Shown: positions 1,290 to 46,366 of the stretch, in pieces
Numbering within the stretch: position 1 is the stretch's first letter
Layout of the letters: the number at the start of each line of letters is the position of its first letter
Source: a virus
Lineage: Duplodnaviria; Caudoviricetes
Length of the DNA: 46,541 nt
Direction: 5' to 3' (one strand)
Virus record (IMG/VR): IMGVR_UViG_3300023100_000002
Span: 1 to 46,541 of that record
Notes under the pieces: model-generated
The model's input: the letters and a program-made list of their open reading frames with translations, nothing else
The model's database searches: none
Told to the model about the DNA's origin: nothing
Made by a program: the position numbers and the translations under genes

Positions 1290-1818
1290 CGTATACACTC
1301 TTACGCCGGGTGTCATGGGCGGGGCGGGGTTGCCATTTAAGATGGCCGCTGCTGATTTCAAGCTTGCCAATGAAATCAGCAGCTTAGGCCAGCCAGAGCT
1401 AATTAACATCAAGCGCCTCCACCCGTCCGCAGTAATTCCGACCTACGCCACCGATGGCTCAGGCTGCTTCGACATTACGGCACTTGAGATGGTGCAGCAG
1501 GAGGGTAATACGGCGTTCTACACCACTGGCCTAGCGTTTGAGGTTCCGCCAGGCAAGGTGCTGATGCTTTACAGCCGTAGCGGGCATGGGTTCAATCGGG
1601 GCATCCGGCTTGCTAATTGTGTGGGGGTGATCGATTCAGATTACCGTGGAGAAGTCGCCGTAAAGCTGACTCGGGACAATGAGGGCATTTGGTTCCCTGC
1701 GGCTGGTGAGCGGATTGCTCAGGGGCTTATTCAGGATGCCCAGCAGGTCAGGTTCGTTGAGGTCCAAGAGCTTAGTGAAACGGCGCGCGGAACTGGTGGC
1801 TTTGGATCGACTGGCTGA
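1282..1818 (+). CDS. dut: Trimeric dUTPase
   Basis: Motifs GCFD, RSG, GVIDSDYRGE, RIAQ, RGTGGFGSTG. Confidence 0.97.
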   Translation: MSDVYTLTPGVMGGAGLPFKMAAADFKLANEISSLGQPELINIKRLHPSAVIPTYATDGSGCFDITALEMVQQEGNTAFYTTGLAFEVPPGKVLMLYSRSGHGFNRGIRLANCVGVIDSDYRGEVAVKLTRDNEGIWFPAAGERIAQGLIQDAQQVRFVEVQELSETARGTGGFGSTG

Positions 1819-1884
1819 TCGTTCCACCACTGCACCACTGAATCCTACGCACGATGTTGCATAGGATTCTAGTAAGAGTAAGAT
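1817..1884 (+). promoter_or_regulatory. Putative promoter of the RNA island (repeated promoter module)
   Basis: GATCGTTCCA box at 1817, TTGCAT 1857-1862, 16-bp spacer, TAAGAT 1879-1884. Confidence 0.55.
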
Positions 1885-1893
1885 TCGATTCAA

Positions 1894-2097
1894 GGGATTT
1901 AGCTGAGCCGAGCAGCCCGCACAGGCGGATACCTCGGAAGTCGAGCAGCCGCAGGTCTTGGCTTGACGAAACAACGGCGGCACCTAGAGCGTCGTGTAGC
2001 CTTCGGGCGTCTCCGCAGCGTGATCTAGGCGAGTAACTAGCGTAACTAGGAGTAGAGGGGCTAAATTGGGGATGGTATAGCGCCCACTCGGCCTAGA
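1894..2097 (+). ncRNA. Putative structured ncRNA (multi-stem, UUCG tetraloop, possible pseudoknot)
   Basis: Several nested helices directly downstream of a promoter; no credible ORF. Confidence 0.5.
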
Positions 2098-2128
2098 CTT
2101 GGATTGTGAGATAAGTAGCATGTAGGAA

Positions 2129-2167
2129 CCCGCCAGTGGCTCTAGAGGGCTTAGGGCTGCTGGCGGG
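2129..2167 (+). other. 16-bp hairpin (with G-U pairs), possible processing signal
   Basis: CCCGCCAGTGGCTCTA / TAGGGCTGCTGGCGGG; no U-tract. Confidence 0.55.
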
Positions 2168-2184
2168 GGAAGTGAGTTATCGCA

Positions 2185-2260
2185 TGACCATGTAGTAGCT
2201 CAATAGGTAGAGCGACGTTTACGTCAGGTTTGAGGTTCAAGTCCTCACTCATGGTCAGCC
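2185..2260 (+). ncRNA. tRNA-like RNA with intact D and T arms but truncated anticodon arm
   Basis: TA-GCTC-AATAGGTA-GAGC D arm; TGAGG-TTCAAGT-CCTCA T arm; anticodon arm only GACGTTTACGTC; no CCA. Confidence 0.65.
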
Positions 2261-2275
2261 GATAGTTCATTTAAA

Positions 2276-2399
2276 GTGTTGCTTGTAGTGGAGAATGCCA
2301 AGTGGTGATTGGCAGGGAGGACCAGTCGGGTAAGCCGTAGCGCTGCGGGGTTAACGCGACAAGCCAGAGAATCACCACTGGCCTCCACTACAAACAGCA
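2276..2399 (+). ncRNA. Putative rod-shaped ncRNA with branched apex
   Basis: 2283-2293/2383-2393, 2297-2300/2379-2382 and 2302-2310/2370-2378 pair perfectly. Confidence 0.6.
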
Positions 2400-2420
2400 T
2401 TTCTAGTAAAATAGATTTAA

Positions 2421-2507
2421 GGGATCATGGCAGAGTGGCCGAATGCAGCCGGTTGCTAACCGGTAAGCCGCAATGGCTCAGAGGTTCAAATCCTCTTGAT
2501 CCCGCCA
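2421..2507 (+). tRNA. tRNA-Ser(GCT)
   Basis: GGGATCA/TGATCCC acceptor, GCCGG-TTGCTAA-CCGGT anticodon arm, long variable arm, G73, CCA. Confidence 0.93.
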
Positions 2508-2512
2508 GTTTT

Positions 2513-2599
2513 GGGTTGTTCCGCTGTGTTGGACGGCGAGCGGTCTTGAAAACCGTGGGAACCGAAAGGTTCGGGGTTCGACTCCTCAGCAACCCGCAA
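2513..2599 (+). tRNA. tRNA-Ser(TGA)
   Basis: GGGTTGT/GCAACCC acceptor, GCGGT-CTTGAAA-ACCGT, long variable arm, TTCGACT loop; ends G-CAA rather than CCA. Confidence 0.85.
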
Positions 2600-2629
2600 T
2601 TTATTCTATAGACGACTAAGGAGTCAGTC

Positions 2630-2998
2630 ATGGATAAAAAAGCATTAAAGCTTGGTATGAATTACAGCACTGCAGCAAATAGGCTGAGGTCTGATCTCCT
2701 CTATCATTTTGCAATAAAGTTTGGTCACAAATGCCATAGGTGTAGCAAGGATCTGACAAGGGAAACTTTTTCAGTCGAACATATTGACCCATGGCTGAAT
2801 TCAGATGATCCGGTTAAGAACTTCTTTGATATAAGTAATATAGCTTTTAGCCATCAATCTTGTAACTACAGCCATGGCGGAAAGGGTGCTGTTAGGAGAT
2901 TTTCAAAAGAGCAAATGGTTGAAAGGAAGAGGACAAAGAAAAGGGAATCGTACTGCCCTATAAAAAGGGCACAGAAATACGAGAGACTTGGCACTTAG
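2630..2998 (+). CDS. HNH endonuclease (putative free-standing homing endonuclease)
   Basis: CHRC...SVEHIDP...NIAFSHQSCN; visibly AT-richer than its flanks; lies inside the tRNA cluster. Confidence 0.85.
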   Translation: MDKKALKLGMNYSTAANRLRSDLLYHFAIKFGHKCHRCSKDLTRETFSVEHIDPWLNSDDPVKNFFDISNIAFSHQSCNYSHGGKGAVRRFSKEQMVERKRTKKRESYCPIKRAQKYERLGT

Positions 2999-3018
2999 CG
3001 ATCCTCAACAACCCGCCA
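2999..3018 (+). repeat. Second copy of the tRNA-Ser(TGA) 3' end, with CCA
   Basis: CGATCCTCAACAACCCGCCA vs CGACTCCTCAGCAACCCGCAA at 2579-2599. Confidence 0.8.
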
Positions 3019-3022
3019 TATT

Positions 3023-3098
3023 GGGACTGTAGCTTAAAGGTCAAAGCAACCGACTCATAATCGGTTGAGTCTAGGTTCAAGTCCTAGCGGTCCCACCA
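3023..3098 (+). tRNA. tRNA with CAT anticodon (Ile2-like, or elongator Met)
   Basis: GGGACTG/CGGTCCC, ACCGA-CTCATAA-TCGGT, CTAGG-TTCAAGT-CCTAG, ACCA; lacks initiator features. Confidence 0.92.
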
Positions 3099-3100
3099 TT

Positions 3101-3197
3101 TCATGGTAAGTGTCGCGGGCAGCAACCACACGCGGAGGTAGACCAGATGTAGCTGGTGAACTAAGTTCTAAGGCATATCGAAAAGCTGTCACCATGA
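3101..3197 (+). ncRNA. Putative structured ncRNA between two tRNAs
   Basis: Closed by TCATGGT/ACCATGA; three internal hairpins. Confidence 0.5.
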
Positions 3198-3203
3198 TTC
3201 ATT

Positions 3204-3277
3204 ACGAGCTTGCCCGATTGGTTAGGGACCAGCCTTCCAAGCTGAGGAAATCGGTTCGATTCCGATAGTTCGCTCCA
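3204..3277 (+). tRNA. tRNA-Gly(TCC), atypical A1xC72
   Basis: CAGC-CTTCCAA-GCTG, ATCGG-TTCGATT-CCGAT, U73, CCA. Confidence 0.85.
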
Positions 3278-3306
3278 GTTTCAACCACGGAAGAGAAGAG
3301 GGAAGT

Positions 3307-3633
3307 ATGGGTAAGTTGGCAGAAGCGCTTGGGAAGTTCTTAATCTCACTGTCGTTTGCAATTGTTCTTGGCATCTACAATGCGTGGCTGTTCAAAGATT
3401 TGTGGAATTGGTTTGTAGTTCCGACTTTTGATGTTGGGCAAATCGGAACGGCGATGGCCTATGGACTGCTTATGGCTTTCGCATGGCCACTTACTCACCT
3501 GCTGTTCTTCACGAATCAGGTTTACGATAAGCAGGAGGGTGCCGTAGGTGTGTACGGTCGAGGGTTTGTGCTTAGCTTCGCGCATACCTTCATTTGGGTT
3601 ATCGCATACGTTGTCGCTCACAACTTCATCTAA
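3307..3633 (+). CDS. Membrane protein (about 3 TM segments)
   Basis: Hydrophobic segments; GAGG RBS. Confidence 0.8.
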   Translation: MGKLAEALGKFLISLSFAIVLGIYNAWLFKDLWNWFVVPTFDVGQIGTAMAYGLLMAFAWPLTHLLFFTNQVYDKQEGAVGVYGRGFVLSFAHTFIWVIAYVVAHNFI

Positions 3634-3638
3634 GGCTA

Positions 3639-3666
3639 TTGCCAGCCGCGCATGAGTCGCTATAAT
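3639..3666 (+). promoter_or_regulatory. Sigma70-like promoter
   Basis: TTGCCA-16bp-TATAAT. Confidence 0.7.
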
Positions 3667-3672
3667 GAACTC

Positions 3673-3782
3673 GCACGGCTGCTCAAGCGCCTGCCCACGG
3701 TCCCTCCCCGTGGTTAAGTCCGGCCTCATCCACCGGCACGCGCCCTAGGCTATCGTCCTCCCCGATAGTGCTAGGGTTTTTT
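3673..3782 (+). ncRNA. Putative small regulatory RNA with three CCUC(C)-loop hairpins
   Basis: Bounded by promoter and intrinsic terminator; loops TCCCTCC, CCTCATCCA, TCCTCCC. Confidence 0.65.
3743..3782 (+). terminator. Intrinsic terminator
   Basis: CCCTAGGCTATCG/CGATAGT-G-CTAGGG stem followed by T6. Confidence 0.85.
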
Positions 3783-3793
3783 ATGGGCGAAAT

Positions 3794-3862
3794 CCATCGT
3801 TCTATTCATGGCGAAGATAGTTCTATCCATGATGTTGATCGGATCGTGTAAGTTGGTACTCT
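3794..3862 (+). promoter_or_regulatory. Repeated promoter module copy
   Basis: CATCGTTCTA, GATAGTTCTA, GATGTTGATC, TACTCT 3857-3862. Confidence 0.55.
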
Positions 3863-3993
3863 TTAGTAACTGGGGCGACAGCAGCGACCGGGACACAACT
3901 AAGGCGGCAACAGAATGTCTTAGCCGAGAACTCCGACTAGCGGTCCCATCTACTTTCAGACACACAACGGCCACGGGCCAATAGGGAGATGAG

Positions 3994-4194
3994 ATGATGA
4001 TGTTTAGCGCAAGCGTATTGGCGTATTTTAGCCCTCAGCATTTCCGTGGGATGCGTGTTGGTCAGGCGTATCACAATTTCCTAAGCCTTGATAAGGTAAA
4101 GGGCGTTGAAAAGGAATGGTGCGATAAGTTTTATGAGGCGGATGGTGAAATTGCTTATGCCATGCTTCGTGAGCGAACGGATTTCACGCAATGA
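3994..4194 (+). CDS. Hypothetical protein
   Basis: GGAG RBS; MRVGQA motif seen in small phage proteins. Confidence 0.7.
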   Translation: MMMFSASVLAYFSPQHFRGMRVGQAYHNFLSLDKVKGVEKEWCDKFYEADGEIAYAMLRERTDFTQ

Positions 4195-35624: not shown

Positions 35625-36055
35625 TACCAATTTCCTCGCTGCTTAATGAACGGGATGGTATCGGAGTCGAAGTCATCTACTGGGTTATCCGTAGCCCGCT
35701 GCGGACGCTCCCGCTTGGGCGCACCGCCACGCGAACCGCCAGAGCCGCCGCCTTGGCCTTCTTGCTTTCCGCCAAGCAGCTTCAATTCCGACAGGTTCAG
35801 CGTTAGATATGTCTTCCCTTCATGCTCGCGCGTTCCAATGTCACCCTCAACCAAAACCTGGCTACCCTTCGTCAGATACTGCGCGAGCTTCTCGTATCGG
35901 TCGCCCCAACCAGACACGTCAAGCCAATAGGTCTTTTTATTCTCTCCCCAGCCGGTATCGAATGCAGCACTGAATCCAGTAACAGACTTTCCGCCTTGCG
36001 TGGAGCGGGTCACTGCATCCTTGCCAATACGGCAAACATCTTTGAAGTTGCTCAC
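35624..36055 (-). CDS. ssb: Single-stranded DNA-binding protein
   Basis: OB-fold motifs (YLTKGSQVLVEG), Gly-rich linker, DDFDSDTIPF tail; start GTG 36055. Confidence 0.93.
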   Translation of the reverse strand: MSNFKDVCRIGKDAVTRSTQGGKSVTGFSAAFDTGWGENKKTYWLDVSGWGDRYEKLAQYLTKGSQVLVEGDIGTREHEGKTYLTLNLSELKLLGGKQEGQGGGSGGSRGGAPKRERPQRATDNPVDDFDSDTIPFIKQRGNW

Positions 36056-36693
36056 GGCGTCATTTCCTTTTTCAGTGCGGTACGAATCTGGCTCGGCAGA
36101 CGCGTCCAAAGCGCAGTCTTTTCGTCATTATCGATTTCCAGCGTCTTGATGTACTTGGCTGCATCGGCTGCTCGCTCTACGCCAAGGTCAATGATGTGGT
36201 CTGCATGATCCTGCAAGAACGCCTGAGCCTCTTCACTCATGGATTCCCACACCCCAGTTGTCGGCGTAACCTTCGCCGCTGCCGATTTAGCCTGCGGCTT
36301 GCTGTTGTGCGCGGCAGACTGGCCGTCATCATCTTCCTGTGCGATCCCTGCGATAGCAGCAGCAGAGTATCGGCGCAAATAGGTAGTCGCCGCCCCTACG
36401 CCCTGAGCGTCCGTCTTAGCGGGCTTGCATGAGGCGCGGGACGTAATGTATCCGCCTGCCTTGTGGGCAATCACAGTGGATACGCTCACCACCTCGCCAT
36501 CAAACTCCGTGGACTGGATGATGCTCAATCCCTCTTCGCTGAAAACTGGGCGAACAGTGTTAAGAACCTCTGCCAAGTCCGCATAGTTGCTACGGAAGTG
36601 TGGGTTCTGTGCATTTTTTGTTGCATTCTCAATCTTCCCCTGTGCAGCGCTGATAGCTGCAAACAACTCAGGATTGGCGTTGCTAGTGTCCAT
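36052..36693 (-). CDS. erf: ERF-family single-strand annealing recombinase
   Basis: NPHFRSNYADL...GAATTYLRRYS...EDDDG. Confidence 0.93.
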   Translation of the reverse strand: MDTSNANPELFAAISAAQGKIENATKNAQNPHFRSNYADLAEVLNTVRPVFSEEGLSIIQSTEFDGEVVSVSTVIAHKAGGYITSRASCKPAKTDAQGVGAATTYLRRYSAAAIAGIAQEDDDGQSAAHNSKPQAKSAAAKVTPTTGVWESMSEEAQAFLQDHADHIIDLGVERAADAAKYIKTLEIDNDEKTALWTRLPSQIRTALKKEMTP

Positions 36694-45747: not shown

Positions 45748-45911
45748 CCCGCCAAGAGCAAGCCTACCAAGCGGGCCAATGGGCTAGGCAAGAGGGCAGG
45801 ACTGAGGCGGCAATGCCGCTCTACGGCCCGACTGAGGAATGCATGGTTCTTCGCAAGAAATGGCGCGAAGGCTGGCGGGCTGAGGATGCACAACGGAGTA
45901 AGAAGAAATGA
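45744..45911 (+). CDS. Rmf-like small protein (55 aa, not in track)
   Basis: EQAYQAG...EGR...PLY...RKKWREGWR; ATGA coupling at both ends. Confidence 0.6.
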   Translation: MTRQEQAYQAGQWARQEGRTEAAMPLYGPTEECMVLRKKWREGWRAEDAQRSKKK

Positions 45912-46366
45912 TCTTAGGTATTGATCCAGGCGCTAGTGGCGCATTGGTAGCGCTAGATGAACATCATGAGCCGATTGAGTGGATGCGGATGCCGGTGATG
46001 AAGGAAGGCTCTGCGACTCGCGTTAACGCTTTGGCCGTAGCTGAGTTCATCCGTAGCCTGCCAAGCGATAATATCCGCGCCTACGTCGAGTCAGTTCACT
46101 CTATGCCTAAGCAGGGTGTAACGAGTAGCTTCAATTTCGGCCACTCCGCTGGCGTCATTGCGGGCGTTCTGGCGGCACTGGAAATCCCGACTCTTATGGT
46201 CACGCCTCAGCGCTGGAAGAAGCGAGCCGTTCTGATCGGAACCAATAAGGACGCAGCCCGCAGCAAGGCTATCCAGAAGTGGCCTAAGTGGCGCGAGCTG
46301 GATAGGATCGGTGCAGGGCAGGCATACGCCGATGCTGCATTTATTGCTATCTACGGGCAGGAATGA
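45908..46366 (+). CDS. RuvC-like Holliday junction resolvase
   Basis: ILGIDPG, YVE, FNFG, VTPQRWK, ADAAFIA. Confidence 0.88.
   Translation: MILGIDPGASGALVALDEHHEPIEWMRMPVMKEGSATRVNALAVAEFIRSLPSDNIRAYVESVHSMPKQGVTSSFNFGHSAGVIAGVLAALEIPTLMVTPQRWKKRAVLIGTNKDAARSKAIQKWPKWRELDRIGAGQAYADAAFIAIYGQE

Follow-up and report, generated by a model that had tools for sequence, protein, structure and literature searches.

The window analysed here, 46,541 bp of DNA that form a complete phage record with direct terminal repeats, contains a tRNA-Ser(UGA) gene (2513-2599, + strand) that has received a 419-bp insertion carrying one HNH endonuclease gene and flanked by a 16-bp direct repeat of the tRNA's own positions 59-74 (2582-2597 and 3001-3016; positions counted from the T-loop). 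Read from the sequence, it is the target's own tail that has been duplicated; no donor has supplied a new end. We propose that the one-gene cassette is probably a free-standing homing endonuclease: its product would cut tRNA genes that have not been invaded, and recombination would then copy the cassette in. It encodes an intact nuclease domain of a homing family, lies outside any intron or intein, and is optional at its locus, being present or absent at the same place in close relatives (X contigs and GenBank pairs). The cassette is probably a selfish gene, and the filled tRNA is likely still working. The original prediction had placed an integrase-free HNH cassette at the T-loop and 3' end of tRNA-Ser, between two tail copies at 2579-2599 and 2999-3018. 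Both copies are there, with the repeat now refined to 16 bp and spanning positions 59-74, and the complete genome yields zero matches to either PF00589 (tyrosine integrase) or PF00239 (controls 14/14 and 12/14), in line with the absence of an integrase.

The nearest GenBank relatives of the window are vB_AbaS_Silvergun, whose match covers 76% of the packaging region at 90%, and Stenotrophomonas phages. ARAGORN predicts four tRNA genes, namely tRNA-Ser(GCT) (2421-2507, +), tRNA-Ser(TGA) with its end drawn at 2597 (2513-2597), tRNA(CAT) (3023-3098, +), and tRNA-Gly (3204-3277), and the HNH reading frame is placed between the second and the third. Both neighbours of the target, tRNA-Ser(GCT) and tRNA(CAT), encode their CCA according to ARAGORN and the sequence. 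Upstream of the tRNA cluster, 1902-1985 resembles Proteo-phage-1 RNA below threshold (32.5 bits versus a cut-off of 42), 2189-2254 holds a tRNA-like element with a collapsed anticodon arm (33 bits with Rfam tRNA, missed by ARAGORN), and 2263-2413 forms a 31-nt inverted repeat around 89 nt, of which relatives swap the interior and retain the arms.

Delineated by ARAGORN, by pairing in the sequence, and by alignment with three empty alleles, the target is a tRNA-Ser of the 8/4 type. It shows an 8-bp acceptor (2513-2520 with 2588-2595), a 4-bp T-stem (2573-2576 with 2584-2587) around the T-loop (2577-2583), a long variable arm, and G73 at 2596, features that are conserved in the three empty alleles. 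Because the tRNA is of this type, the upstream tail copy gives a complete stem, closing the 8/4 acceptor with one G-U pair, and for the same reason Rfam scores the target as tRNA-Sec. The same acceptor, T-stem, variable arm, and G73 are described for 8/4 tRNA-Ser of phages and proteobacteria in PMC5389517, a likeness that concerns the target and not the cassette. The 3' end of the filled gene reads CAA, not CCA. Genes of the 8/4 serine type also precede the nearest homologue (L012) and several others (L009, L013, L233, L238).

The upstream repeat copy (2582-2597, +), located by the 419-base offset of the joints in the X3 and X7 contigs, lies within the intact tRNA gene. Joints and composition define the unique part of the insertion (2598-3000, +), whose 403 bp comprise a 32-nt leader, the HNH gene, and 2 nt, so that 401 of 403 bases are leader and reading frame and only 34 are non-coding. 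Its G+C content of 39.5%, versus 53.8% for the genome, is below that of every 403-base window sampled at 50-base steps. The downstream copy, positions 59-74 followed by CA (3001-3018, +), represents the displaced original CCA end with the original flank, as identified from the empty alleles and from the ends of L252 and RiverRider. Because the left junction follows C74, inside the CCA, the change from CCA to CAA is the one that is constant. The two copies match at 14 of 16 positions in the window; in X4, whose filled allele has A at 2589 and C at 3001, they are identical over all 16. The filled allele of X2 has G at 2589 and likewise C at 3001, and the ‘CGA’ that seems to open the downstream copy in the window is therefore partly coincidental. 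An exact 16-nt search for the downstream end returned 13 contigs, 12 of them without a tRNA. The locus displays a feature of genomic islands, the regenerated tRNA gene accompanied by a displaced 3' fragment.

Filled and empty alleles were compared in assembled contigs only, from 8 of 24 listed sequencing runs, with X4 and X5 counting as one data set and X1 being possibly the source of the window; runs labelled as RNA are probably DNA. Contigs in X3 and X7, from two studies, join 2582 to 3002 and omit the 419 bases (the shorter side of these joints measures 125 and 129 bases), and X2 and X10, from two further studies, present the empty form as a loose end after 2597. Filled alleles were found in X2, alongside the empty one, and in X4/X5, with pieces of the reading frame in X6 and X3; 10 of the 13 listed changes of the reading frame in close relatives are synonymous. 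All four empty alleles (X2, X3, X7, X10) read A at position 66, then CCA and the downstream flank, which identifies the downstream copy as the original end, and the more distant empty allele L252 also resembles that copy and ends with CCA. The earlier view of the downstream copy as ancestral is thus upheld, whereas that of the upstream copy as a ‘recoded’ replacement end has to be abandoned: among more distant HNH-less genes RiverRider, L230, and L252 have A66, but L231 has G66 together with CCA, so that G66 is ordinary variation and not recoding, and the filled allele of X4 carries A66 in both copies. The accompanying expectation that HNH-less relatives would end like the downstream copy, an upstream-type end in any of them speaking against it, held for X2, X3, X7, X10, and L252 and failed for L231 with its upstream-type G66. 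Precise deletion between the repeats could explain the empty alleles, or they could be genes that were never invaded; of the 30 Pakpunavirus matches listed only 2 are filled, which fits insertion.

GenBank supplies further pairs of filled and empty alleles. The repeat measures 19 bp in phiPsa300 (empty counterpart PE09), 12 bp in 37F and PT07 (empty counterpart B55), and 15 bp in SalP219 (empty counterpart KE23), and in each of these the CCA is missing upstream and present in the empty allele. In the pair KoPa-4 and Amme-3, CCA is changed to CCC and the remnant is short, and phiPsa397 keeps its CCA and has no remnant.

The HNH gene (2630-2998, +) encodes a protein of 122 aa that matches Pfam HNH PF01844 (24.8 bits versus a cut-off of 21.4) and PHROG 23251 (E 1e-20). 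A conserved core extends up to N79, with C35, C38, E50, H51, H75, C78, and N79 invariant, and is followed by a variable, basic, helical tail; the zinc-binding and active-site residues are invariant in 16 sequences. The predicted structure (pLDDT 86) consists of an HNH-type core and two C-terminal helices. Its fold matches are weak and all to HNH domains, the best being the Gme nicking enzyme (E 0.013); Foldseek returned nothing under E 0.001 and a sequence search of the PDB nothing under E 0.3. Across 62 proteins the mean identity is 58-60% in the core and 27-30% in the tail. Pairs with 80-86% core but 34-39% tail identity adjoin different tRNAs, and near-identical cores occur at different tRNAs (86% core identity, Gln versus Trp). 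On a weakly supported tree of the 62 proteins the target label changes 38 times versus 45.4 +/- 1.6 times when shuffled (0 of 1000 as low), which implies some inheritance and much switching. The idea that the tail decides the target found no support, as tail similarity was not correlated with target-sequence similarity (partial rho -0.001, p 0.47, 57 proteins). Many tails of the family hold a second Cys-rich motif (C-x-C-x-x-C), and others, including that of the window, are plain basic helices; the two types are mixed across the tree, which points to repeated tail exchange.

A single-protein query found no relative in viral contigs, whereas a query alignment of 16 proteins did. From the viral loci we took the 80 best of 228, from the metagenome loci the 80 best of at least 569, and from the genome loci all 60, and added five GenBank loci and the window; tblastn matched 88 GenBank phage records. 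The resulting family set of 233 genes was grouped at 80% identity into 151 clusters. In 81 of these clusters the start codon lies at most 50 nt from the discriminator base of a tRNA, 46 of them at 29-33 nt, and the tRNAs in question represent 27 anticodons and 18 amino acids. The other 70 did not score as immediately following a tRNA; among them are genes in reverse orientation, loci that are truncated, ends resembling tmRNA, and cases that the scoring missed.

Enough flank for tail analysis was available in 56 phage or metagenome clusters and 24 clusters from genome contigs. Scored on positions 61-73 only, with at least 10 of 13 matches, a tail copy follows the stop codon directly in 15 of the 56, versus 0.19% in label-swapped controls, and together with the X3 and X7 contigs that skip 419 bases this places the duplication beyond chance. 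All 15 copies lead into CCA and 13 of them start at positions 57-60. Remnants starting right at the stop codon number 17 of 56 versus 0.63 expected; with a bonus for CCA, 24 of 80 clusters score positive (control 4%), and among the genome contigs 1 of 24 has a tail copy. Furthermore, CCA is encoded by 23 of 56 target tRNAs versus 221 of 244 neighbouring tRNAs (p 1e-14). Duplication and CCA loss are nevertheless not obligatory in the family, for a tail copy is not recognisable in 41 of the 56 cases, among which 20 keep the CCA. CCA is retained in 3 of 15 cases with a remnant versus 20 of 41 without, a difference that is not significant (p 0.07). Within 18 cases, all four perfect repeats lack the upstream CCA and the three that keep it differ from their remnant at two or more places, a pattern that could alternatively arise from age. 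Pairing with the 5' half is better for the upstream copy in 10, worse in 1, and equal in 13 of 24 cases.

Several loci of the family are organized differently. L180-L228, from genome contigs mostly of Pyrinomonadaceae, form a divergent branch of 12 clusters behind tRNA-Glu(CTC) in which the tail copy is nearly absent. By eye, the stop codon of L197, L207, L226, L047, and L038 runs into the reverse strand of tRNA-like sequence in opposite orientation, and L115 and L141 have the same leader behind the ends of tmRNA-like or other tRNA-like RNAs, L115 with a short tail copy. L101 (419-802) follows a tRNA-Trp, from which its remnant differs at 9 of 13 positions, the nearest ends being those of tRNA-Asn (3 mismatches), and this remnant is possibly a tail brought from an earlier target. 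In L100 and L108 the upstream copy is degenerate or missing and the 5' half finds a good pairing partner in the downstream end, so that these tRNA genes are apparently split at the T-loop; a computed search for such split tRNAs lacking a replacement end (74 loci, 10 joins called, unscored) yielded no clean class.

The 32-nt leader carries a Shine-Dalgarno-like AAGGAG (2618-2623) buried in a hairpin (2611-2629, +) of 3+3 bp with a bulged A at 2626, which abuts the start codon (fold z -3.5). A 3+3-bp stem with a one-base bulge, at most 4 nt from the start codon, is present in 43 of 50 leaders versus 6% of 5,901 random places. In an alignment of 45 of the 50 leaders, which omits the five that do not fold so and is to that extent biased in favour of the result, pairing holds in 99.6% of cells and both sides change at 5 of 6 pairs (54 cells; 0 of 500 shuffles). 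In the filled relative X4, G2611T breaks the outer pair. Neither a sigma-70-like promoter on the + strand before the HNH gene nor a + strand terminator within 1700-4000 was found. The hairpin may keep the nuclease at a low level on the transcript of the tRNA cluster.

How might such a cassette move? We think it quite likely that the nuclease nicks or cuts the empty allele between T-loop and CCA, and that Erf, SSB, and resolvase copy the cassette across in a mixed infection. Outside the cassette, the genome codes for such candidate helpers of homologous repair, among the 35 of 73 long reading frames scanned: an Erf-like single-strand annealing protein (36055-36693, - strand; PHROG 2324, E 3e-44), an SSB, and a Holliday junction resolvase (45908-46363, +; PHROG 1770, E 4e-33). 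The position of the cassette suggests that it has inserted into its own presumed target, which would set it apart from the distant cleavage described for T4. In the filled gene the upstream copy retains the T-loop but no CCA, and the downstream copy the CCA but no T-loop, an arrangement that would account for immunity; that the filled allele is spared in this way, neither copy keeping both halves of a T-loop...CCA site, seems to us nearly as probable as its opposite. With somewhat less confidence, jumps to a new tRNA may proceed via micro-homologies common to all tRNA genes, the CC of the 3' end and the TCC at the exit of the T-loop, where template switches would use the new target to rebuild the same duplication; as an alternative, a staggered cut followed by fill-in is more doubtful. 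Illegitimate repair at micro-homologies has been discussed for T4 introns (PMC2988022).

Since it is the upstream copy whose pairing with the 5' half has been preserved, this copy probably yields the tRNA, and its CCA would be completed by the CCA-adding enzyme of the host. Such a host enzyme adds CCA to phage tRNAs without an encoded one. PMC3014915 makes no mention of CCA or RNase BN. A wider and tentative reading is that integrase-free cassettes of 0.4 kb hop between tRNA types, their core reading shared landmarks, their tail being swappable, and their insertion writing both the repaired tRNA and immunity. It is equally tentative that in such hopping the tail would be exchanged at each move and the T-loop-to-CC duplication with the broken CCA would constitute the immunity.

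Homing into the tRNA gene has to be weighed against three other explanations. The nuclease could be mere cargo, if tRNA 3' ends are recombination hot spots where illegitimate recombination lands cassettes, and the HNH protein cuts the DNA of a competitor or host elsewhere. Known free-standing endonucleases indeed have their cleavage sites at distances of hundreds to thousands of bases (PMC2988022), and the tail is not predictive of the target. However, one family holds the 29-33 nt spacing behind tRNAs of 18 amino acids, its remnants begin right at the stop codon far above expectation (17 of 56 versus 0.63), and the CCA loss is specific to the tRNA in front and spares the neighbours, so that we consider cargo improbable. 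More unlikely still is a minimal island, in which a tyrosine integrase of the host or a prophage would act in trans and insert the cassette at a T-loop site from a 419-bp circle. The footprint is admittedly the island signature, a whole tRNA plus a displaced 3' fragment with a crossover at the T-loop/T-stem boundary (PMC4383910). Yet the genome encodes no PF00589 or PF00239 protein; with 401 of the 403 unique bases taken by leader and reading frame there is no room for attP arms, which measure about 250 bp in PMC4383910; near-identical cores (86%) sit at different tRNAs, Gln and Trp; and the upstream copy is cut inside the CCA.

The original prediction had also considered an intron-like insert or alternative acceptor pairings, that is, a switch in which the 5' half pairs with the downstream CCA copy and the reading frame is either removed or looped out from the T-loop. 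In the 506-nt precursor, equilibrium folding does bring the 5' strand together with the downstream copy (P about 1); the same tendency is seen in 17 of 24 family cases, and in L100 only the downstream copy pairs well. Equilibrium folding was nevertheless rejected as evidence for a switch, since 40 of 40 codon-shuffled controls also favour the downstream copy and the preference is thus generic. Moreover, Rfam detects no intron family within 1800-4000, the insert leaves no space for a ribozyme core, 10 of the 11 unequal cases show better pairing of the upstream copy, and the joined form occurs in DNA-type runs with strain-specific changes. The intron-like reading, left without support, is the least probable of all.

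Among known systems the proposed homing cassette comes closest in behaviour to SegB of T4 and T6. SegB, whose gene has a predicted RBS hairpin, recognises a T-loop motif, cuts just 3' of the CCA, and is responsible for homing of the T4 tRNA region (PMC2330249); its homologues favour no tRNA type (PMC13096335). The likeness extends to residence in a phage tRNA cluster, absence from close relatives, the lack of a tRNA-type preference, and the RBS hairpin; and SegB's two landmarks, T-loop and CCA, are the same two that bound the duplication here. However, SegB is a GIY-YIG enzyme, whereas the cassette protein, with 122 aa, is HNH only and shows no GIY-YIG assignment. The cassette is located within its presumed target, where the tail is duplicated and the CCA broken. 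SegB, by contrast, has a tRNA gene on either side, cleaves another gene (tRNA-Asn of T2L), and brings about the conversion of about 1250 bp (PMC2330249); the word ‘duplication’ is absent from the main text of that paper. The cassette therefore works like SegB at most and is not a SegB.

T4 Mob and T5 F-Tfl are comparable in combining an HNH core with a distinct C-terminal part, in being promoterless on the transcript of host genes, and in some RBS hairpins (PMC2988022, with F-Tfl as cited in PMC2330249), but their described cleavage sites are far from the gene and the accessible descriptions include no tRNA tail duplication. No T4 or T5 record is among the matches listed (60 of 88 tblastn rows). 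The islands and prophages of Islander share the intact tRNA upstream, the displaced 3' fragment downstream, and the T-loop/T-stem boundary; unlike these, as presented in PMC4383910, the cassette has no tyrosine integrase, consists of one gene in 0.4 kb, targets a phage genome, and has lost the upstream CCA. HNH genes near phage tRNA clusters are already in print (PMC6409571 and PMC8421152). In a search of the openly accessible literature, mostly at the level of listings, no paper was found on HNH cassettes that duplicate a tRNA tail and break its CCA. Free-standing homing, SegB-like T-loop and CCA landmarks, and the island footprint are thus known; the HNH cassette with tail duplication and CCA break appears to be new.

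For phage genomics, a tRNA gene accompanied by a 3' fragment need not imply an integrase, cassette insertion explains some phage tRNA genes without CCA, and attention is drawn to genes that lack annotation in several GenBank records. Arguments about how a free-standing homing endonuclease first settles at a new site harmlessly have so far come mostly from T4, and here one small family has colonised sites repeatedly, at tRNAs of 18 amino acids and with a precise, recurring footprint. The cultured filled and empty pair KoPa-4 and Amme-3 on Pseudomonas putida KT2440 makes homing, self-immunity by CCA loss, and retargeting directly testable. If true, hopping cassettes would produce the footprint of an island by a nuclease alone and would serve as a minimal model for the spread of homing genes to new sites.
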